Source: a virus. Taken from it: a DNA stretch of 17,701 nt. The DNA lies in the IMG/VR virus record IMGVR_UViG_3300043540_000327. One strand, 5' to 3'. Positions 1 to 12,462 of this stretch are shown piece after piece (position 1 is the stretch's first letter; each line of letters starts with the position of its first letter). The notes below the pieces were generated by a model. The model saw nothing but the letters and a program-made list of their open reading frames with translations, was not told where the DNA came from and searched no databases. Both the position numbers and the translations under genes were made by a program.

Positions 1-357
1 CTGGAGCCGTACCCCATCGTGGACGCCGCTTGTCGGTTCACGAAGGGCATGTACGAGCCGGGCACCCACTTCTGCGTTTCGTTCCAATATCGCAAGCACC
101 TTCCCATCGGTCGTGGCGGCATGATCCTCACCGACGACCCCGAGGCCGTCAGGTGGTACAAGCTGGCCCGGTTCAGCGGCCGGCATGAAATCCCACTTAC
201 CGAAGACGTTCCCGAAATGGTCGGCTGGCATTGTTATATGGAGCCGGAGCGTGCCGCTCGGGGCATGACCCTGATGATGAATTTGCGTGAAACCAACCAG
301 GACTTGGAGTTTAATTACCCAGACCTGTCCACCTTTGGTTTGTACGAGGCAAAATGA
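1..357 (+). CDS. DegT/DnrJ/EryC1-family sugar aminotransferase, C-terminal fragment (the 5' part lies outside the window)
   Basis: The frame is open from base 1 and runs into the stop at 355-357. The GGMILTDD segment resembles the conserved GGA(I/L)xTxD box of PLP-dependent sugar aminotransferases. The stop overlaps the next start as ATGA. A sugar acetyltransferase follows directly. Confidence 0.55.
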   Translation: MEPYPIVDAACRFTKGMYEPGTHFCVSFQYRKHLPIGRGGMILTDDPEAVRWYKLARFSGRHEIPLTEDVPEMVGWHCYMEPERAARGMTLMMNLRETNQDLEFNYPDLSTFGLYEAK

Positions 358-968
358 ATATAATTGGCAGCGGCGGATTTGGCAGAGAAGTAGCGTTATA
401 CGTCCAGCGTGCGCACCCACAGGACGGACATCGTTTCGGAGTCGAAAAGGAATATTGTAGCGAAAGCCATGTGGCCGGGCTGCCGTTATTGTCTCTGGAA
501 CAACTTGCCGAGTATAAGGATGCACCTACGCTCATAGCCGTTGGCGATCCGGGCTTGCGTGAGAAATTCTTGACAAGATTGGTGATGTTGGGTTTTTCCA
601 ATTTCCCCGTGTTTATAGACCCGTTGGTTGTCCGGTCGCAGGCATATGTTTCTTTCGGGGAGGGTACGATTGTCACCCCGTATTGCATCCTGACTACCAA
701 CGTCAAAGTGGGAAGGTTCGTCTTGATTAACCTGTCCTGCACAATCGGGCACGACGCAGTTGTCGAGGACTTTGTGACCATAAACCCCGGCTGCAATATC
801 AGCGGAGGGGTCCATATCGGCCGGGGCGCTCAATTGGGCACAGGGGTTAAAGTGATACCGAATGTGAGTATAGGAGAGAATGCGATTATCGGAGCAGGAG
901 CCGTGGTGGTAAGGGACATTCCGCCGAATTGCACTGCGGTCGGTATGCCTTGCAAACCGATCAAATAA
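354..968 (+). CDS. Hexapeptide-repeat sugar N-/O-acetyltransferase (PglD/NeuD family)
   Basis: The N-terminus MNIIGSGGFGREV is a Rossmann-like NeuD/PglD N-domain. The C-terminal half carries tandem left-handed beta-helix hexapeptide repeats (IGHDAVVED..INPGCNISGGVHIGRGAQLGTGVKVIPNVSIGENAIIGAGAVVVRDIPP). The ATGA start overlaps the upstream aminotransferase. Confidence 0.75.
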   Translation: MNIIGSGGFGREVALYVQRAHPQDGHRFGVEKEYCSESHVAGLPLLSLEQLAEYKDAPTLIAVGDPGLREKFLTRLVMLGFSNFPVFIDPLVVRSQAYVSFGEGTIVTPYCILTTNVKVGRFVLINLSCTIGHDAVVEDFVTINPGCNISGGVHIGRGAQLGTGVKVIPNVSIGENAIIGAGAVVVRDIPPNCTAVGMPCKPIK

Positions 969-976
969 AGGAGTAC

Positions 977-1810
977 ATGAGAACCATCCTCGTCTATACA
1001 CACCCATTCAATTTCACGTCCGGCGGCATTGTCGTGCTGCACAAGTTGTGTCATTTGCTCCGTCAAAAAGACCAGAACGCACGGCTATGGATGGTCGATG
1101 ACGACTGGACGACCTGGGCGACCTGGCCGGAGTATGATACCCCAATAGCGAACGGCAAAGTTGATCCTCGGGATTGCGTCGTCATCTACCCGGAGATCGT
1201 CAGCGGCAATATCCTTGAGGCCAAACACGCCGTTTGGTGGCTGCTGAATAAACCTGGATTTTGGGGAGGCACGTTTGAAGCCAAGCCCGAAGACTTGATC
1301 GTCACCTACTCGGATCATTTCTCGGCCGATTACCCCAACGCCGAACAATTGCGAGTCATTGAATGCTGGTTTGAATATTTTAGCCCCGACCCGACGATTG
1401 TACGCAAGGGTGGATGCTATGCCATGCGTAAGGGTGCCATCATGGGCAAGCAGCCAATTCCAGAAACGGACGGTCTGAAGCCGATTGTGGATTCGAGTTA
1501 TGATATAGCGTTCTTGCGAAACACGTTCCGTGAGTCGGAGGTATTTTACAGCTACGACTCCGCAACCTTCCTGTCCCTGCACGCCGCCCTGTGTGGATGT
1601 ACCAGCATCGTCATCCCGGATGAAGGTATGACTAAGGATCAATGGCTAAATAAGTTCCCACTCATGAAATATGGCGTTGCTTATGGCCTGGAGGACCGGG
1701 CCTGGTCCGAAACCACCAAGGATAAGGTGCGGGACCATCTGATGGAAGAAGAAGCGAAATGCCTGCTCACGGTTGACAACCTCATCGAGCGTATCAACAA
1801 CTTGACATAA
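977..1810 (+). CDS. Hypothetical protein, possibly a GT-B-like glycosyltransferase
   Basis: An ATG at 977 follows an AAAGGAG RBS (967-973), 9 nt after the acetyltransferase stop. The C-terminal segment ESEVFYSYDSATFLSLHAALCGCTSIVIP loosely resembles the EX7E/'EAmaxGxPvI' donor-binding motif of GT-B enzymes. It sits next to the aminotransferase/acetyltransferase pair. Confidence 0.5.
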   Translation: MRTILVYTHPFNFTSGGIVVLHKLCHLLRQKDQNARLWMVDDDWTTWATWPEYDTPIANGKVDPRDCVVIYPEIVSGNILEAKHAVWWLLNKPGFWGGTFEAKPEDLIVTYSDHFSADYPNAEQLRVIECWFEYFSPDPTIVRKGGCYAMRKGAIMGKQPIPETDGLKPIVDSSYDIAFLRNTFRESEVFYSYDSATFLSLHAALCGCTSIVIPDEGMTKDQWLNKFPLMKYGVAYGLEDRAWSETTKDKVRDHLMEEEAKCLLTVDNLIERINNLT

Positions 1811-1876
1811 AGGCACGTTTCTTGTTATCATCGTACCATTAGTTTTCTTCGCCTCCACTATTTGGAGAGCAGAATC

Positions 1877-2880
1877 GTGCCGACGTTCAAAATCATTTCC
1901 ATCGTCAAAGACGGCACCTACCCGCTACGTCTCTTGCCTGGCAATCCCGTCTTCGTCAACCGGCAGTGGCATCGGCTTGGCATTGGCGTCACCAATGCCA
2001 AGAACTTCCTGTGTACACGGATGCCGACGAACAAGGACCGTCTGACCGGCGCTCAGAAGTACGAGGGCTATTGCGCCATCTGCGAGGCGGCGATCTCGTG
2101 CTACAAAAAAGGCCAGGAGAGCGATTTCCGAAAGCTGAAAGCTTTTGAGCGGTCCTATTACTGCGCCATCAATCGTGACGAGCAGGACATCGGCGTTCAG
2201 CTTTTCACCTGCGGCAAGCAGATTCAGTCGATCATTTTATCGGCCTCGCTGGGTGACGCTTTCGCCAAGAAGCACCCCCTGGGTGATGTCTTTAACTATC
2301 ACACCGGCCGGGACTTCATACTCATCCGCAAAACAAATATCAGTGGTTTCCCCGATTACGGCGAGTCTTATTTCTCCCCGCCGTATCCGGCCGGCACCGG
2401 CCACGAAATTCAGCAATGGATGACGAACCTCATCGACCTCGACAGCATGTTCACGCCGCCTACGGCCGAAACGGTGCAGAAGGCCCTGCAAGAGTATTTC
2501 CACGTTCCGGCCAAGCCAAGACCATCAAGATTTCCGTCAAGCAGGAAGAAGGCGATGCCATTGCGGGCATTCGGATATATTCCAACCCGCATAGCATCTG
2601 GGACTCACCGCAGTGCGTCCTGGTTAGCCGGGAAGCGTTCTGCAACATGGTCGCTGACCGGGCCGACCGGGGCGTCTACTACCACGCCAACGGCTATTAT
2701 ATCATCCGGGCCGAAATTACCGACACCGGCGAGGTCTGGGCACGGGTCGTCCCCGAAGACCCCTGCTTGGAGGCCAGTCTCCAGGCGATCCAGAAGAAAT
2801 ACGAAGACACCAAGAAGGAACCGGAATACCGCATTTTCGAGAAGAAGATGCTGGATGCGTACCACCAGCGACCCGTATAA
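1877..2880 (+). CDS. Hypothetical gp32-like ssDNA-binding protein with a His/Cys3 zinc motif, apparently interrupted by a -1 frameshift near 2513-2521
   Basis: A GTG at 1877 lies 7 nt after a GGAGAG RBS (the track ORF begins at a TTG at 1862). Frame 2 reads protein-like text up to ..QEYFHVPAKP (about 2518). After that, protein-like text continues only in frame 1 (KTIKISVKQEEGDAIAGIRIYSNPHSIWDSPQCVLVSREAF...KKMLDAYHQRPV, stop 2878-2880). The frame-2 continuation to 3061 is Arg/Ser/Thr/Pro-rich junk. The switch falls at the short direct repeat gccaag|ccaag. The N-terminal segments LRLLPGNPVFVNRQWH and H-x13-C-x19-C-x2-C recall the T4 gp32 IRFLP...PFAILVNH region and its His/Cys3 zinc site. Confidence 0.5.
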
Positions 2881-3123
2881 TTGGATATGTACGAGTCAAG
2901 CTTTATCTACGGCAATAGCGATAACGCCAAGTGGCCGAAGACGGCCTGGCCTCGGGACGGTTTCCTGTTGTTCTGCGAGAAGCACGGCTTTCCCTACCGG
3001 GAAGGCCACAAGTGCCCCAAGTGCGAAGACAGAGGCATCAAGACGAATTATCGCAGCATAGACGAACCCTGGACGGCACCCGATGACCGACGAGGAATGG
3101 GAAGCACTGAAGAAGAAGTATAA
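2881..3123 (+). CDS. Hypothetical small zinc-ribbon protein carrying the YRSIDEPW motif
   Basis: ORF of 80 aa with a possible TTG start at 2881 or ATG at 2887. It contains C..HGFPYREGHKCPKCE followed by K-T-N-YRSIDEPW (3049-3072). It overlaps the next gene by 41 nt. Confidence 0.45.
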   Translation: MDMYESSFIYGNSDNAKWPKTAWPRDGFLLFCEKHGFPYREGHKCPKCEDRGIKTNYRSIDEPWTAPDDRRGMGSTEEEV

Positions 3124-3361
3124 CGTCCCGCCAGGCGAGGAAATGATCCCGATGGGCTGCGGCCCCCAAGACTGGCGGGTCGGCCGTGGCTACTTCGAGA
3201 TGTTCGAGCGATACAAGCAGCAGAATCCGGGCTTCCAGGAAAGCGTTGACCGGGTGCGGAAGAACCTGTTCAAGTGGCGGACCCCGCCGAAGCCTGAAGA
3301 GCCGAAGCCGGACCAAAAGTACCGGAGCATTGACGACGAGTGGGACAATTTTGGAGCTTAG
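3083..3361 (+). CDS. Hypothetical protein ending in KYRSIDDEW
   Basis: ORF of 92 aa. The C-terminus reads ...KPEEPKPDQKYRSIDDEWDNFGA, with the motif at 3320-3343. The first 100 aa of the 3186..4025 track ORF are an out-of-frame shadow of this gene. Confidence 0.55.
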   Translation: MTDEEWEALKKKYNVPPGEEMIPMGCGPQDWRVGRGYFEMFERYKQQNPGFQESVDRVRKNLFKWRTPPKPEEPKPDQKYRSIDDEWDNFGA

Positions 3362-3377
3362 TGCAATATATACCGAT

Positions 3378-4025
3378 ATGGAGATTCACGAAGTCGTCAA
3401 ACTGTTCGTCCAAGAGCTACAAATCGAACCGATCTACGAGCAAGAAGGTCGGCATTTCCAACTCTGGTGGTCGCCGCCGATGGACGACGGCCGCAAGCGC
3501 CACGGTCAAATCTGGCGGGTCATCAGCCAACTCTACAAGGACCAGCGGGTACTCCAGATCGGCTACCCCTGGCAGGGCAACGAGTTTCCCTCGGCCAAGG
3601 TGCTGGATTATACCGGCGAGCATGACGATGCGGATTATAAACTGAATCCGCAGAACATGCCTTGTATCAAAGACGGCAGTTTTGATCTGGTGCTTTGCAA
3701 CAGCATCTTGGAGCAGATGCCAAAGTTCTGGCTCGTTGCCCAGGAGATGTGCCGGGTGCTGGATAAGAACGGCGTCTTATGGGTGACGGCGCCGGCCGTC
3801 TGGCCGCACCACCCTGACGGCGAAAGCACCGAATACGGCGGCGACTATTGGCGATTTACCCACCGTGGCCTGGCCGAGTTGTTCGAGGAGCATTGCGACA
3901 AATTGGCGACTTGGTATATTCCGGCACAGGCCCCTTACGACAACCCGCAGTCGGGCTGGGGAGTTGTCTATGTGGGGAGGAAAAGAGATGAACAAAGTAA
4001 GACCATCGGTTTACCTGGAAGATAA
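3378..4025 (+). CDS. Class I SAM-dependent methyltransferase (type 11-like)
   Basis: An ATG at 3378 follows the previous stop at 3359-3361. The segment SFDLVLCNSILEQMP..CRVLDKNGVLWVTAP matches the post-I/II motifs of small SAM methyltransferases (FDLVxxxxVLEH...LKPGGxLxxT). The N-terminal 64 aa of the track ORF look out-of-frame. Confidence 0.6.
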   Translation: MEIHEVVKLFVQELQIEPIYEQEGRHFQLWWSPPMDDGRKRHGQIWRVISQLYKDQRVLQIGYPWQGNEFPSAKVLDYTGEHDDADYKLNPQNMPCIKDGSFDLVLCNSILEQMPKFWLVAQEMCRVLDKNGVLWVTAPAVWPHHPDGESTEYGGDYWRFTHRGLAELFEEHCDKLATWYIPAQAPYDNPQSGWGVVYVGRKRDEQSKTIGLPGR

Positions 4026-4506
4026 GTGCAAGACCTTCGAGACGCTACTCGACTATTTCTTGGCCGAGAAGGGGTCGTTCAACAAGACGGTCAACGAGAA
4101 ACTACTGGCTTTTCTCTACCAGATTGACTTCTGGGATTGGGAGATCGAGAACCTGATTTTCTCGTTCGACAACTTCGAGGAACGCTCCCAGGCGTGGCAG
4201 GGGTCGGCTAACAGCAACGTGAATGCGATCTGGCTGCGGCATGGTCTGCCCATCAAAAGCAACCTCGTCTCTTTTTGGAAGGACTACTCCAGTCGCTACT
4301 ATAAAGGCGAGAAGGTGGTGGCGCCGGTCAAGCACTTGAACAAGGTCATCGACAAATGGAACAAGTTGCTGGACCGCTGCGTGGACCGGGTATTCATGGA
4401 AGAGAAGACGATTCAGTCGGCCATCGAGATGAAGGCCCAGATATTGCCAAACCTGGACAAGTACAAGAAGAGCTTACGCCGAGAAACGGAGGGAGATGCT
4501 AGTTGA
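3988..4506 (+). CDS. Hypothetical protein
   Basis: An ATG at 3988 is preceded by GGGGAGGAAAAGAG. The text from MNKVRPSVYLEDK onward is protein-like, and this segment is more AT-rich than its neighbours. Confidence 0.5.
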   Translation: MNKVRPSVYLEDKCKTFETLLDYFLAEKGSFNKTVNEKLLAFLYQIDFWDWEIENLIFSFDNFEERSQAWQGSANSNVNAIWLRHGLPIKSNLVSFWKDYSSRYYKGEKVVAPVKHLNKVIDKWNKLLDRCVDRVFMEEKTIQSAIEMKAQILPNLDKYKKSLRRETEGDAS

Positions 4507-4777
4507 TTATGACGAATACTTCCAATTATGCAGGACGGCGAGCGTGCCGGTAGGTAGCATGGAGACACAACAAGTAATCGACGTATTGAAGGAAAAGTAC
4601 CCACACGCCTTCCGCATGGTGAAAGACGAACCTCACCTGGAGGTCGCTGTCGCCCTGAGCGGCACGACGTTGCCGCTGATGAACGATTGGGCACGTCGGA
4701 TGGGCGAGGGTGCGACCTTCGACCTTTTCCACAAGAGTCTATCAGAAGTCCTGATGCAGCAGGAAGGAGCGGCTTGA
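4496..4777 (+). CDS. Hypothetical protein
   Basis: ORF of 93 aa; GGAGGGAG lies immediately upstream of the ATG at 4496. Its stop overlaps the next start (TGATG). Confidence 0.45.
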   Translation: MLVDYDEYFQLCRTASVPVGSMETQQVIDVLKEKYPHAFRMVKDEPHLEVAVALSGTTLPLMNDWARRMGEGATFDLFHKSLSEVLMQQEGAA

Positions 4778-5310
4778 TGTCGAAGCTGATCGACTTTTAC
4801 CTGGAAGAAGGAACCGATACCGAGGGCAGAACCTTCACGGAGATTATGGCCTGGTCGGACGAGAAGTGGGAGTTCGGCCACGATTACATCCAGTGGATGT
4901 TCCCGCTCCAGGAAGAGAGCAACTTCAACCCGGACGCCCCGTTGTTGACGGAAGAGGACATCAGGCTCTTTCATGCCAACCCGGACCTGCGAAACAACAT
5001 GGTCCTGGCCTTTCACCGCTTCGTGAAGTTTCTGGGTCTGAAGTGGCTGATCGACCCGATGATCCAGGACGCTACGGTCATCAAGGCCGGCAACTTTCAG
5101 GAACGGCGGTGGATGATTTGGGACAACCCGAACCACAACTGGTTCCGCATCAGTCGTGTTCTCAAGTCCTTGAAGCTTCTGGGTTTGAAAGAATACGCCG
5201 ACGATCTATTTGCCTGCTTGAAGCGATTGCACGAGGACGAGGGCCTGGTGACTGGCAACTCGTTTCGCTATTGGCAAGAAGCGGTTGCACTTCCGACGAA
5301 ATCAGAGTAG
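4777..5310 (+). CDS. OGFr_N-like (opioid growth factor receptor conserved region family) protein
   Basis: An ATG at 4777 follows GGAAGGAGCGG. The N-terminal segment IDFYLEEGTDTEGRTFTEIMAWSDEKWEFGHDYIQWMFPL matches the characteristic start of bacterial OGFr_N-family proteins (..FY.G...D..GR.L.EI..W.D..LE..HDYIQWLFPL). Confidence 0.5.
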   Translation: MSKLIDFYLEEGTDTEGRTFTEIMAWSDEKWEFGHDYIQWMFPLQEESNFNPDAPLLTEEDIRLFHANPDLRNNMVLAFHRFVKFLGLKWLIDPMIQDATVIKAGNFQERRWMIWDNPNHNWFRISRVLKSLKLLGLKEYADDLFACLKRLHEDEGLVTGNSFRYWQEAVALPTKSE

Positions 5311-5350: not shown

Positions 5351-5686
5351 ATGAAGGAGCTTGTGAACCAGATCGCCCAGAAGTCCGAGGTTGACGGGGC
5401 GTTCTTTCGTGCCCACTTCCTGGGTTGCGTGGAACTGACGAAGCTAGGCGACGAGTACCGAAGCGTCATGAAGGCGTTAATCGAGTGCCCCGTGTGCCAG
5501 CGACTCTGCCCAGGCGTCAATGAACTGCACGGTCATCTGGTCATGCACTGGCCCATTGCTCACGTTCGGGATTACCTGGACTGGTTGGAGAACCAGCGTG
5601 AGGACGTGCGGCGGGAGATGAAACAGCTTGCGGATTCATTGCAAGAAAGCATGGGCCTGTTGATAAATAAGAACACGCCGGCATGA
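5351..5686 (+). CDS. Hypothetical protein with a single C2H2-type zinc finger
   Basis: ORF of 111 aa. CPVCQRLCPGVNELHGHLVMH has the C-x2-C-x12-H-x3-H spacing, with a Leu three residues before the first His. The stop (5684-5686) lies inside the 5' end of tRNA-Thr. Confidence 0.5.
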   Translation: MKELVNQIAQKSEVDGAFFRAHFLGCVELTKLGDEYRSVMKALIECPVCQRLCPGVNELHGHLVMHWPIAHVRDYLDWLENQREDVRREMKQLADSLQESMGLLINKNTPA

Positions 5687-5747
5687 TGTAATGGTAGCCT
5701 GACTGCCTTGTAAGCAGTATGTCCGGGTTCGATTCCTGGTGCCGGCT
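5677..5747 (+). tRNA. tRNA-Thr (anticodon UGU)
   Basis: Hand-folded cloverleaf. Acceptor stem gccggca/tgccggc is 7 perfect bp. The D-arm is atgt-aatggta-gcct with one mismatch. The anticodon stem actgc/gcagt has loop cttgtaa, giving anticodon TGT with U33 and A37. The variable loop is 4 nt. The T-arm is ccggg-ttcgatt-cctgg. Discriminator is T and no CCA is encoded. Confidence 0.7.
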
Positions 5748-5748
5748 C

Positions 5749-6102
5749 TTAACTAGCACTAACAATAGGACCACCAGCGGGTGGCGTTGCGGAAACGGGT
5801 GGTTCGATTTTAACCATCCACCACTTGACGGGCGGCGTAAGTTCGTCCCACGGTCGGGCGTAGTTCAGTTGAATCACACCAGCCCCGGTGATGAGGAAAA
5901 CGAAGTGGATACTGACGGGGGCGCCGGGCTTGGCGGGGTCTTCTCCCTCATGGCGAATGTACTGAAGCAATCCGGCGGTCGTATCTACAGCCTGCCAGAT
6001 AAAACCGCTGCCGGCTGCCCAGGGCAGGGTGACGGTTAAGCGATCTCCAGAAACGGCATGGACGGTTTGGCCGTTATTCTCATTGGTGACTTTAATATCC
6101 AT
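5749..6102 (-). CDS. Chagasin-family (MEROPS I42) cysteine-peptidase inhibitor homologue
   Basis: The 117-aa - strand protein begins MDIKVTNENNGQTVHAVSGDRLTVTLPWAAGSGFIWQ. Compare T. cruzi chagasin MSHKVTKAHNGATLTVAVGELVEIQLPSNPTTGFAW. PGAPVSIHFVF aligns with LGAGGTEHFHV, and GAGVIQLNYARPWDE aligns with AGTHAVNLTYMRPW (the RPW loop L6). It has no signal peptide, like chagasin itself. The gene fills the gap between the two tRNA genes exactly. Confidence 0.7.
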   Translation of the reverse strand: MDIKVTNENNGQTVHAVSGDRLTVTLPWAAGSGFIWQAVDTTAGLLQYIRHEGEDPAKPGAPVSIHFVFLITGAGVIQLNYARPWDELTPPVKWWMVKIEPPVSATPPAGGPIVSAS

Positions 6103-6131
6103 GAGAATATATAGGGGTCAGGAAGAAAATT

Positions 6132-6204
6132 GCGGGTGTAGCTCAGTGGCTAGAGCGCCACGTTGCCAACGTGGATGTCGTGGGTTCAAATCCCATCACC
6201 CGCT
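6132..6204 (+). tRNA. tRNA-Gly (anticodon GCC)
   Basis: Canonical cloverleaf. Acceptor gcgggtg/cacccgc. D-arm gctc-agtggcta-gagc. Anticodon stem ccacg/cgtgg with loop ttgccaa, giving GCC. T-arm gtggg-ttcaaat-cccat. Discriminator is T and no CCA is encoded. Confidence 0.85.
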
Positions 6205-6258
6205 CTTGAGGATTTACGGTGCCCCGGAACTTGTTCGAGGACCATAACGACTTCAGGG

Positions 6259-6450
6259 ATGTTATCACTGGCCCAACTTCGGGATGCCCTTCAGAACGGT
6301 CGTGTGTTCAAGCGAGGCACCCCGATCAAGGTGACGATACCACAGATGGCGATGCCGAATATCGTTTTCGCTGATGAGGTCCACGAAACGGTGGTGCCGA
6401 TCAAACCCAAGAAGAAATATCGCTCGATTGACGATCCCTGGGAGGCGTGA
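6259..6450 (+). CDS. Hypothetical small protein ending in KKYRSIDDPWEA
   Basis: This ATG is the first in-frame start downstream of the tRNA. The 63-aa product ends ...VVPIKPKKKYRSIDDPWEA, with the motif at 6418-6441. Its stop overlaps the next start (TGATG). The upstream part of the 6163 track ORF overlaps tRNA-Gly and is rejected. Confidence 0.5.
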   Translation: MLSLAQLRDALQNGRVFKRGTPIKVTIPQMAMPNIVFADEVHETVVPIKPKKKYRSIDDPWEA

Positions 6451-6946: not shown

Positions 6947-6978
6947 AAACGGCCAGGAAAATCCTGGCCGTTTGCTTT
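6947..6978. terminator. Bidirectional rho-independent terminator between convergent genes
   Basis: aaacggccagg-aaaat-cctggccgttt forms an 11-bp perfect stem followed by GCTTT. On the other strand it is preceded by A/T-rich text. It lies 4 nt after the + gene stop (6940-6942) and immediately after the - gene stop (6977-6979). Confidence 0.7.
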
Positions 6979-7336
6979 AGCGGTATGGCCTGCCGTGCCA
7001 GTGCCATGACCCTCCGTACCACCGCCAGCCGTAATAAGGCCGGTAGTAGCGATAGTAGTACCCGTAATTCGGGTAGGTATAAGGCTGGTAGTAGAAGGGC
7101 AAGGTGATGATGGGTGCCGGCGGCGGCTCTAGCTCAACGGGTGGCGGCACCACGGGCAGTGGAACCCACCGCCAACCGTAATTGGGATAGTACCTCCACC
7201 TGCCCTGTACTTGAGCGAGATGTGCAGGGCGGTCGGCGTTTTGCCTTTCCTGGTGGACGTTGGGCTTCGGCGGGTCTTTGACGGGTTCGTAGTCGGTCGG
7301 CAAAACGAATAGGGCGACGGCTAAGAGATTGTACAT
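6977..7336 (-). CDS. Secreted or signal-anchored protein with a C-terminal region extremely rich in Tyr/Trp/Pro/Gly/Arg
   Basis: A strong - strand RBS (AAAGGAGGTATT-ATG) precedes it. The N-terminus MYNLLAVALFVLP is hydrophobic. A PPPVELEPPPAP linker follows. The C-terminus reads YYQPYTYPNYGYYYRYYRPYYGWRWYGGSWHWHGRPYR. No + strand ORF competes for this span. Confidence 0.6.
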   Translation of the reverse strand: MYNLLAVALFVLPTDYEPVKDPPKPNVHQERQNADRPAHLAQVQGRWRYYPNYGWRWVPLPVVPPPVELEPPPAPIITLPFYYQPYTYPNYGYYYRYYRPYYGWRWYGGSWHWHGRPYR

Positions 7337-10253: not shown

Positions 10254-10728
10254 CCAGGCTGCGCTGCGTGCCGCCAAGAAGCTGGGCATCGCCACCGGCG
10301 GCTGGGTGCCCAAGGGCTGTCGCACCGAGGACGGTCCTCGCCCGGACCTGATTGACGAGTTCGGCCTGACCGAAACCGAAACCGACGACTACGTTGAACG
10401 GACCCATCTGAATATCGAGCATTCGGACGGTACGATCCGGTTCGCCGCCGATTTCAACTCGATTGGCGAGCGATGCACGCTGCGGGGCATTCGCAAATAT
10501 AAGAAGCCCTATTTCGATTTCGATATCAGCAAGCATTATCGCTTTGCCGACCTCCTCCGGTGGGTCTGGGATAACAACATCCACGTCCTGAACGTCGCCG
10601 GCAACCGGGAGAGTAAGCACCCCGGCATCGGCAAAACGGTGGAAGAATTCCTCATCCCTTTTTTCACGCAGCTTATTCCCCTGGAACGGGCGGAAGCGTT
10701 GCTGCGCAAAGTCCTGGAGAATGACTGA
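10195..10728 (+). CDS. SLOG-superfamily 'putative molybdenum-cofactor carrier' (PF12694-like) protein
   Basis: VISGAQTGADQAALRAAKKLGIATGGWVPKGCRTEDGPRP...ETETDDYVERTHLNIEHSDGTIRF matches the remembered family consensus (GGQTGvDraALdaA..gi.hGGWCPkGR.AEDG.i...ETpsadYaeRTewNvrDSDgTL). GGGAGAAG RBS. The stop overlaps the SerRS-like start. Confidence 0.6.
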   Translation: METKDWTLTKVISGAQTGADQAALRAAKKLGIATGGWVPKGCRTEDGPRPDLIDEFGLTETETDDYVERTHLNIEHSDGTIRFAADFNSIGERCTLRGIRKYKKPYFDFDISKHYRFADLLRWVWDNNIHVLNVAGNRESKHPGIGKTVEEFLIPFFTQLIPLERAEALLRKVLEND

Positions 10729-11516
10729 TGATCGACTTTGAGCGTGGTGCGAAGACGACCGGCTCCAAGTTCTACTTCCTGACCGGCCAGAAGGCCGTCA
10801 TGGAGTGGAACCTTATCAACTTCATGATCTCCCACCATCGGCACAACGGCTACGAGTTCGTGATCTCACCCTACCTCATTAACAAGCAGGTGGGTGAGTG
10901 GGCCGGCATCAACAAGCAGGTGGGTGAGTGGGCCGGCATCCTGCCTCGCTTTGAGGGCGACTATTACCAGACCCAGGAAGGACTCATGCTCATTCCCACG
11001 GCCGAGACGCCGCTCGTGGGAATGCACGCCGACGAAATCTTCCAGGAGGAAGAACTGCCGAAGCGTTATGTCGCCTTCTCGCCGTGCTTCCGCAAGGAGG
11101 CCGGTGCTTATGGTGCCAAGGACAAGGGCTATAAGCGGGTCCACCAGTTCCACAAGATCGAGTTGTTCGTGATTTGCGAACCCACGGCGAGCGAGTTTCA
11201 GCACAACCAGATGGTTGGCGATGTGGTCAGCCTGATGAAGAAGCTCAAGGTCGAATATCGCCTGCGGGAATTGCCGCCCGAGGAGCGTAGCCCGGTATCG
11301 GCCAGGACCATCGACGTGGAGGTCAAGGTCGGGGACGAGTGGCTGGAAGTGTCATCCATTTCCAACACGCTTGATACCCAGAGCAAGCCGGCACAGATTC
11401 GCTTCAAGCCGAAGTGCGGCGGCAAGAACATCAAGTGCCATTTGCTCAACGGCTCCGGCGTAGCCTTGCCCCGGCTGATGTTGGCCCTGGCCGACCGTAT
11501 GGCAGAGTGGAAATGA
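10728..11516 (+). CDS. Seryl-tRNA-synthetase catalytic-core homologue lacking the N-terminal tRNA-binding arm (SerRS-like, amino-acid:carrier-protein-ligase-like architecture)
   Basis: It aligns by eye with E. coli SerRS from about residue 105 to the end of motif 3. [20 protein letters not shown] matches [29 protein letters not shown] is motif 1. [21 protein letters not shown] is motif 2 (fRsE). [15 protein letters not shown] is motif 3. There is no coiled-coil arm and no C-terminal tail. It contains an in-frame 10-aa duplication. Confidence 0.8.
   Translation: [262 protein letters not shown]
10881..10940 (+). repeat. Perfect 2 x 30-bp tandem duplication inside the SerRS-like gene
   Basis: aacaagcaggtgggtgagtgggccggcatc occurs twice without a mismatch and duplicates [10 protein letters not shown] in frame. 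Confidence 0.9.
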
Positions 11517-12396: not shown

Positions 12397-12462
12397 CTTT
12401 TGTGCTTTACAATTGGCACATTCACATTGGCGGAAGACCCACAACATAACTCTGAGGGATTT

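Follow-up and report, generated by a model that had tools for sequence, protein, structure and literature searches.

A phage-borne chagasin-family gene between two tRNA genes and its candidate peptidase target

Introduction

Chagasin-family (I42) inhibitors are known to keep papain-like proteases under control in protozoan parasites as well as in some archaea and bacteria; their targets are the papain-like (C1) cysteine proteases. The IMG/VR virus record IMGVR_UViG_3300043540_000327, a whole contig of 17,701 bp that is referred to here as the window, carries on its minus strand an open reading frame (ORF) that was first read, from the letters alone, as a chagasin-family inhibitor gene lying between two tRNA genes (this first reading is called the original prediction below). 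What would a virus do with such an inhibitor, and which peptidase would it hold in check? The answer that we favor, with about even confidence, is a functional inhibitor of the wedge type that acts on a papain-family (C1) peptidase; a C1 enzyme of the phage itself is more likely to be its target, and a host enzyme is the main alternative. The gene is a new, phage-borne member of a known family and not a new kind of system, because no description of a phage I42 protein was found: full-text literature searches, using chagasin together with phage as well as the Pfam names, gave no report of I42/chagasin proteins in phages, and a large comparative survey of jumbo phages does not mention peptidase inhibitors.

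Family membership and fold

The I42 gene occupies positions 5749..6102 on the minus strand (coordinates including the stop codon, from the ORF list) and encodes a protein of 117 amino acids from an ATG start. The protein matches the Pfam family PF09394 (Inhibitor_I42) with E=1.3e-8 and 35.4 bits, above the gathering score of 27.2, and its residues 18-93 align to profile positions 4-85 of 91, so that the family assignment of the original prediction holds in a profile search. Its description of the N-terminal match to chagasin as very strong was overstated, the pairwise phmmer values being E=3.5e-3 with chagasin and E=2.7e-4 with amoebiasin-1. An exhaustive HMMER search recovered 445 relatives at E ≤ 1e-3, and a subfamily profile built from the 22 closest single-domain relatives matches the solved I42 inhibitors at E=2e-18 to 2e-15 (Pseudomonas aeruginosa ICP, E=2.1e-18; amoebiasin-1; Leishmania mexicana ICP; chagasin, E=2.1e-15). 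The AlphaFold2 model, which rests on 11 sequences, has eight beta-strands and a mean pLDDT of 90.6. When the model was compared with the PDB by Foldseek, all 12 best matches were I42 inhibitors, with TM 0.71-0.79 for the best of them (EhICP2, E=7.6e-8; chagasin 2nnr, 0.71/0.76; amebosin, 0.72/0.79); the same set of 12 holds PbICP-C and PA-ICP, chagasin-family chains bound to proteases (2nqd, 2oul and 3pnr) are among the top matches, and generic Ig domains score far below the I42 inhibitors. Chance similarity is excluded by the profile matches together with the TM values of the model, and membership in the chagasin family is secure, at an amino-acid identity to the solved protozoan inhibitors of only 18-25%. 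No family in NCBIfam or PHROGs matches the protein, and a viral structure library gave no convincing match (best E=1.5e-3, TM 0.49-0.60). A word-indexed protein search returned only the window protein itself, and the relatives came to light only in the exhaustive HMMER search.

The protein resembles chagasin and the protozoan ICPs (Leishmania ICP, EhICP1/amoebiasin-1 and EhICP2) in being a single PF09394 domain of about 110 amino acids with an Ig-like sandwich, and like chagasin it has no signal peptide and keeps the RPW of loop L6, the glycine of loop L4 and the aromatic-x-Trp that follows loop L2. It differs from them in its low identity, in an AAGSG sequence in L2 and PGAP in L4, in a proline-rich tail of 19 residues and in being encoded by a bacteriophage. 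Among solved inhibitors, P. aeruginosa ICP (PDB 2WGN) is the best profile match, and its C-terminal signature RPWE..PA..F is common to the phage branch described below; the nuclear magnetic resonance model of this protein is a poor Foldseek match (TM 0.43). Bacterial I42 proteins are made with a signal peptide or a lipoprotein signal and presumably act extracytoplasmically, unlike the window protein and its closest relatives, which have none.

Inhibitory loops and C-terminal tail

In chagasin, inhibition depends on three loops that lie together on the same end of the beta-sandwich; of these, L2 enters the active-site cleft of the protease. In alignments with chagasin and amoebiasin, the counterpart of chagasin NPTTGFAW is AAGSGFIW in the window protein (residues 29-36, codons at 5995..6018, minus strand). 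The canonical NPTTG is thus replaced by A29-A30-G31-S32-G33, in which only G33 is identical and T32S is a conservative change, and the conserved F34-x-W36 after the loop is retained. Across 249 related domains, N29 is present in 63%, T32 in 86%, G33 in 94% and W36 in 99%, so N29 is missing in 37%. The L2 loops of I42 proteins that adjoin C1 genes are also non-canonical, reading RASNG in one (P0012) and QTGTG in another (P0047). By this comparison the L2 loop of the window protein is unusual, though not unprecedented. Because the active-site loop is non-canonical, we infer the inhibitory activity and do not take it as given. If the phage proteins are inhibitors, the variant L2 loops of the phage branch would amount to natural experiments in inhibitor specificity.

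In L4, PGAP (residues 59-62, codons at 5917..5928, minus strand) takes the place of the GxGG hairpin of chagasin; the closest relatives all have G60, and the phage branch has the consensus PGxP at this point. Residues 51-60, in the L4 region, are the block of lowest confidence in the folded core, with a mean pLDDT of 81. In L6, the motif R83-P84-W85 (codons CGA CCG TGG at 5848..5856, minus strand) is intact, R83 being invariant and P84 nearly invariant among relatives. The claim that the RPW loop and the central hairpin are conserved stands for RPW and for the L4 glycine G60, and is to be corrected for the hairpin sequence, which is PGAP and not GxGG.

Residues 99-117 form the proline-rich tail (codons at 5752..5808, minus strand), which has a pLDDT of 66-74 and occurs in no aligned relative; its codons reach the 3' end of the neighboring tRNA-Thr gene. 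A terminator-like hairpin that lacks a good T-run lies within these codons, at 5785..5770 on the minus strand.

A phage-borne branch of the I42 family

The closest I42 relatives are about 100 amino acids long, most of them without a signal peptide, and share the consensus WNPSTGYxWQ..TTAG..PGxP..YARPWxE..PPxKWF. Relatives at 38-52% identity have a phage-like context wherever the retrieved contig is long enough to judge, and a pattern scan of 185,579 species genomes gave only relatives at 37% identity or less, most of them at 26-31%; one of 36% identity (P0044) has an ordinary bacterial context. On these two grounds, that the closest relatives that can be judged are phage-like and that those from species genomes do not exceed 37%, we place the window gene in a phage-borne branch of the I42 family. 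Among 50,697 phage records, the only one with a detectable I42 protein is the published 595-kb phage LR756511.1, whose more distant homolog scores 74 bits; whole-window megablast and tblastn of the I42 ORF against these records gave nothing. Pattern scans of IMG/VR with the ORF, with a gp32-like protein of the window or with the alignment of close relatives yielded no confirmed relatives.

The settings of the relatives are varied. The I42 gene of L005 starts 4 nt after a T4-type portal gene. In L006 (52% identity) 5 nt separate its stop codon from a tRNA-Gln/Lys/Pro cluster that follows, and in L021 it sits inside an array of 14 tRNA genes together with EF-Ts and YqeY genes; with the window copy, this makes three members of the branch that are placed within or next to tRNA arrays. 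The gene of L007 is on the opposite strand among ORFs that match no family, and only this copy and that of the window are inverted relative to their neighbors. L019, a 587-kb contig, also carries the OGFr_N gene of the window, and L023 has another window gene in common. More distant relatives, at 31-37% identity, are found on the 586-kb contig L002 and in L004, where the surroundings are those of a phage structural module, with genes for major head, adaptor and neck proteins. Some relatives contain 2-20 tandem I42-like domains, the extreme being P0016, with 20 stretches in 4298 amino acids.

Some side observations concern these loci. The portal of L005 is split into two ORFs (97..2055), with a weak intein-splicing signal in the first; it is after the second that the I42 gene begins. 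In L019, a tRNA at 839..914 with anticodon CUA, called tRNA-Pyl by ARAGORN, may be an amber suppressor, which would hint at stop-codon recoding, and TnpB-like (OrfB_IS605) genes and a resolvase gene lie a few kilobases from the I42 gene.

Phage origin of the window

The window was predicted to be viral, and this can be made more specific. A major-vault-protein-like (MVP-like) ORF of 935 amino acids at 12400..15207 on the plus strand (MVP_shoulder, 85.5 bits; Vault_3, 39 bits) shows 41% identity over 88% to ORFs of a 735-kb phage (LR756501/LR756503) and a 462-kb phage (LR756500), and phage MVPs have been described in a preprint (10.1101/2023.11.10.566534). A gp32-like single-strand DNA-binding ORF matches PF08804, phrog_224 and the 595-kb phage LR756511.1. 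Other genes of the window are common to the I42-bearing loci L019, L018 and L023; for example, an OGFr_N (opioid growth factor receptor N-terminal) homolog at 4687..5310 on the plus strand (77 bits) is 45% identical to a gene of L019 that lies 9 kb from the I42 gene of that contig. Given the MVP-like and gp32-like matches and the genes in common with the 587-kb L019, L018 and L023, we assign the contig to a huge phage (genome over 200 kb), of which it is a fragment; the full genome is probably several hundred kb. In a survey of huge phages, those larger than 634 kb belong to the Mahaphage clade, with Bacteroidetes as their predicted hosts (PMC7162821). The stretch around the gene was seen in a second sample (L001, SRR35212957), including an identical I42 copy, and, being 100% identical over 1,764 nt, that copy is uninformative on selection. 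The original prediction suggested that the inhibitor might protect virion or vault-like proteins; we found no link between the I42 gene and the vault-like protein.

Candidate peptidase target

In the reading that we favor, the intact gene would give a cytoplasmic, single-domain I42 protein of a huge phage, in which the loops L2 (AAGSG-F-x-W), L4 (PGAP) and L6 (RPW), all at the same end of the sandwich, would jointly enter the active-site cleft of a C1 enzyme as a wedge and block it, with tight, reversible and competitive inhibition as the outcome. The target would probably be a C1 peptidase, free of prodomain and signal peptide, that is encoded by huge phages, and the inhibitor would keep this enzyme inactive in the cytoplasm of the infected cell up to the moment of its use. 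The gene itself would form an autonomous unit within a tRNA island and be read in the direction opposite to its neighbors, from a -10-only TATATA promoter that gives a leaderless or nearly leaderless mRNA. By analogy, chagasin and the protozoan ICPs regulate the C1 peptidases of their own organism, which is the role proposed here, and the proposed hold on a C1 enzyme would be functionally like that of chagasin on cruzipain or of staphostatin on staphopain.

The existence of such an enzyme in related phages is evident. In L022, about 450 nt separate the I42 gene (P0012, 39% identical to that of the window) from a Peptidase_C1 gene (69.9 bits) that converges on it and encodes 251 amino acids at 10754..11509 on the minus strand; this enzyme keeps all of the catalytic residues Gln, Cys, His, Asn and Trp and has neither prodomain nor signal peptide. 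The I42 gene of L004 is preceded by a Peptidase_C1+He_PIG gene, whose end lies 0.9 kb upstream. LR756511.1 encodes, besides its I42 protein, an L022-type C1 peptidase at 49% identity in two places, and it is one of only 20 among the 50,697 phage records that have this type of enzyme at all. The L022 enzyme also has homologs in Burkholderia jumbo phage FLC9 and in Lak megaphages, and a multidomain endolysin, that of Alicyclobacillus phage MMB025, has one as its N-terminal domain. Relatives of the L022 enzyme are present in 480 IMG/VR contigs, many of 200-435 kb and some labeled as giant-virus metagenome-assembled genomes; further C1 peptidase entries include L024 (5959..6744), L025 (3977..4768), L026 (3917..6178) and L027-L106. 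The productive query was the L022 enzyme: tblastn of the divergent C1 domain of L004 against the phages gave nothing. PHROGs has no family for this C1 protease domain. A papain match in L015 (E=0.029) was discarded, as no ORF supports it.

The layout of L022 and L004, with an I42 gene near a Peptidase_C1 gene, resembles that of the staphostatins (MEROPS I57) and staphopains, in which a small cytoplasmic beta-barrel inhibitor is encoded beside a papain-like protease, from which it shields the cytoplasm. The likeness is one of function only; the staphostatins are of an unrelated fold and family, and in the window there is no adjoining protease gene. As a separate observation on L004, positions 3..4790 of this 64-kb contig bring together the Peptidase_C1+He_PIG gene, a signal-peptide-bearing I42 gene and the major head protein gene within 4.8 kb, a stretch that opens the structural module.

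Several observations weigh against the favored reading. The cleft-entering loop of the window protein lacks both Asn29 and Thr32, and the residues found there are rare, A29 in 3.6% and S32 in 2.8% of the 249 related domains. No C1 peptidase was found in the 17.7-kb window, either by Pfam over its 40 ORFs or by tblastn with papain and the L022 enzyme. An I42 gene lies within 10 kb of 0 of the 80 best IMG/VR C1 loci, and, conversely, no C1 peptidase was found within 10 kb of the I42 gene in related loci other than L022 and L004. The Lak megaphages and FLC9 carry the peptidase and no detectable I42, and the 735-kb and 462-kb phages that match the MVP-like ORF show neither gene by tblastn. As for the promoter, any -35 element would have to lie antisense to tRNA-Gly, where the match is poor, and a promoter scan found no full sigma-70 site on the minus strand.

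The absence of a C1 gene from the window says little, because the window, at 17.7 kb, is a small part of a genome whose probable size is several hundred kb. The co-encoded protease put forward in the original prediction is thus missing from the window itself, and gains indirect support from the C1 genes less than 1 kb from I42 in L022 and L004 and from the presence of both genes in LR756511.1. Because the Lak phages and FLC9 have the peptidase without detectable I42, the pairing of I42 with C1 is occasional and not obligatory.

The main alternative is that the inhibitor acts on a clan CA cysteine peptidase of the host, such as a cytoplasmic C1-type aminopeptidase or the protease component of an unknown anti-phage system, and serves host takeover or anti-defense with early expression from its own promoter. 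We consider it unlikely, although the fold and the loops fit it equally well and, with no signal peptide, the protein would act in the infected cytoplasm. Such a role would also suit a gene that stands alone on the opposite strand, has a -10 element of the host type and is placed in a tRNA island with non-structural genes around it, L006 and L021 being similar in placement, and the fact that most C1-bearing phages have no I42 implies that the phage enzyme generally needs no inhibitor. The position of a C1 gene less than 1 kb from I42 in two related phage contigs points instead to a phage target. Moreover, no PADLOC defense model matches I42, papain-family or phage C1 peptidases, which leaves the anti-defense role suggested in the original prediction without a known target.

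If the target is indeed the phage enzyme, one may ask whether the two proteins form a system. We raise only tentatively the view that some huge phages possess a protease/anti-protease module of their own, composed of a prodomain-less C1 peptidase and a phage-specific chagasin-type inhibitor that sets its timing. The window gene would then supply the inhibitor of the pair by way of a leaderless transcript made in the tRNA island, and the peptidase could serve lysis, virion maturation or host-protein degradation. Were such a module real, these would be the first viral members of I42 as far as searched, and phages would have a new way of controlling proteolysis; if the phage I42 proteins inhibit the C1 peptidases found in many huge phages, cysteine-protease activity would be under control during huge-phage infection.

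A chagasin fold possibly without inhibition

The protein could also be a chagasin-fold protein that is no longer inhibitory and serves as a binding, scaffolding or virion module in the manner of Hoc-type Ig domains, which we regard as improbable. The degenerate L2, with AAGSG for NPTTG, is in keeping with such a loss, and the relatives with 2-20 tandem domains, such as P0016, resemble surface or structural arrays; the genes of L005, after the portal, and of L004, in the head module, also have structural neighbors. The subfamily profile has weak partial matches in an Ig-like phage protein (9ncf_S) and in a chain of a virion entry of Shigella phage Sf14 (9c2d_S), and capsid decoration domains such as T4 Hoc and Sf14 gp20 (PMC11821841) are beta-sandwiches of similar size. 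Nevertheless, the residues that shape the wedge, RPW, G60, G33 and W36, are conserved across the phage branch, and a mere Ig scaffold would need none of them. The window protein is a single domain with no capsid-binding or anchoring domain, and its similarity to inhibitors is far stronger than to decoration proteins: the best structural matches are all inhibitors, the generic Ig domains rank far lower and the viral structure library was unconvincing.

Gene layout and expression

The nested position of the gene is confirmed by the ORF list, ARAGORN and Rfam. On one side lies tRNA-Thr(UGU), on the plus strand at 5677..5748 by ARAGORN or 5677..5747 by Rfam (tRNA, 59.8 bits), which is convergent with the I42 gene. 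On the other is tRNA-Gly(GCC), on the plus strand at 6132..6205 (ARAGORN; Rfam tRNA, 72.9 bits), which is divergent from it. Because tRNA-Thr ends at 5748 (5747 in Rfam), the stop codon of the I42 gene (5749-5751) abuts it with zero gap, and the ATG is 29 nt from tRNA-Gly. The predicted span of 5749-6131 is right in fitting between the two tRNA genes; its end at 6131 is that of the 29-nt upstream spacer (6103..6131, minus strand), the coding sequence reaching no further than 6102. The window has three tRNA genes and nearly all of its genes are on the plus strand; the gene is, as predicted, one of two clear minus-strand genes in this part of the window, the other being at 6977..7336. A permissive Rfam scan of 5600..6300 for a hidden RNA or tRNA remnant under the ORF returned only the two tRNAs, their opposite-strand mirrors and noise.

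The minus-strand sequence upstream of the gene is cccctatatattctcATG, exactly as first reported, with TATATAT at 6107..6113, 4 nt from the ATG. A -10-like TATATA thus ends 5 nt before the start codon, and the spacer contains no Shine-Dalgarno sequence; the homologs of L002, L003, L005 and L007 have one. The start of the window protein aligns with the N-termini of its homologs. The window contains three copies of TATATA against 0.45 expected, all of them 5-7 nt upstream of the ATG of an ORF of 78-215 amino acids, and the more general TATAWW-N3-7-ATG occurs eight times against 0.48 expected, a number reached in 0 of 200 shuffled sequences. Among the sites are those at 2876, 3367, 6113 (minus strand), 7926, 10501 (minus strand), 16926 and 17650, and at least four of the TATAWW sites precede ORFs of 78-215 amino acids. 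Other plausible starts with this arrangement are 3378, likely the true start of a methyltransferase gene, 16939 and possibly 2887. This pattern suggests -10-only promoters that give leaderless mRNAs in this phage, and it is plausible that the I42 mRNA is leaderless or has a very short leader, an idea of the original prediction with which the start region agrees. The enrichment of TATAWW-ATG is confined to the window and absent in related loci, so a leaderless promoter common to the lineage is unsupported. Since the gene converges on tRNA-Thr with no spacer, transcription reading through the tRNA would run antisense to it.

The I42 gene has a GC content of 0.56 and a codon usage inside the range of the neighboring genes of the window, and its GC3 of 0.58 is at the low end for the window; a recent foreign acquisition is unsupported, as only GC3 is somewhat low. 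That the gene is a silent or decaying passenger fragment, trapped unexpressed between the tRNA genes, is very improbable: the lack of a Shine-Dalgarno sequence and of a -35 match, the possible antisense tRNA co-transcript, the odd proline-rich extension to the first stop at the tRNA border and the low GC3 would suit it, but the frame is intact and full length, all core strands are modeled with high confidence, the start agrees with those of the homologs, the codon usage is that of the neighbors and the TATAWW-ATG arrangement recurs at 3378, 16939 and possibly 2887.

Other genes of the window

Further products of the window include a methyltransferase, a cpYpsA SLOG protein and a TPR protein. 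The cpYpsA SLOG gene precedes that of a class II aminoacyl-tRNA-synthetase catalytic core of 262 amino acids (10728..11516, plus strand), and an anticodon-binding Anticodon_2 + DUF2934 protein is encoded separately from this core at 15262..15960 on the plus strand; the two lie 3.7 kb apart, with the vault-like gene in between. The second minus-strand gene, at 6977..7336, encodes 119 amino acids with no family match and is preceded by TATAAT and then AAGGAGG, unlike most plus-strand genes. The ORF at 16939..17175 on the plus strand, with TATATA 7 nt upstream, encodes 78 amino acids that by eye have the look of a two-helix membrane protein, and it overlaps the end of a DUF5522 gene by 38 nt.

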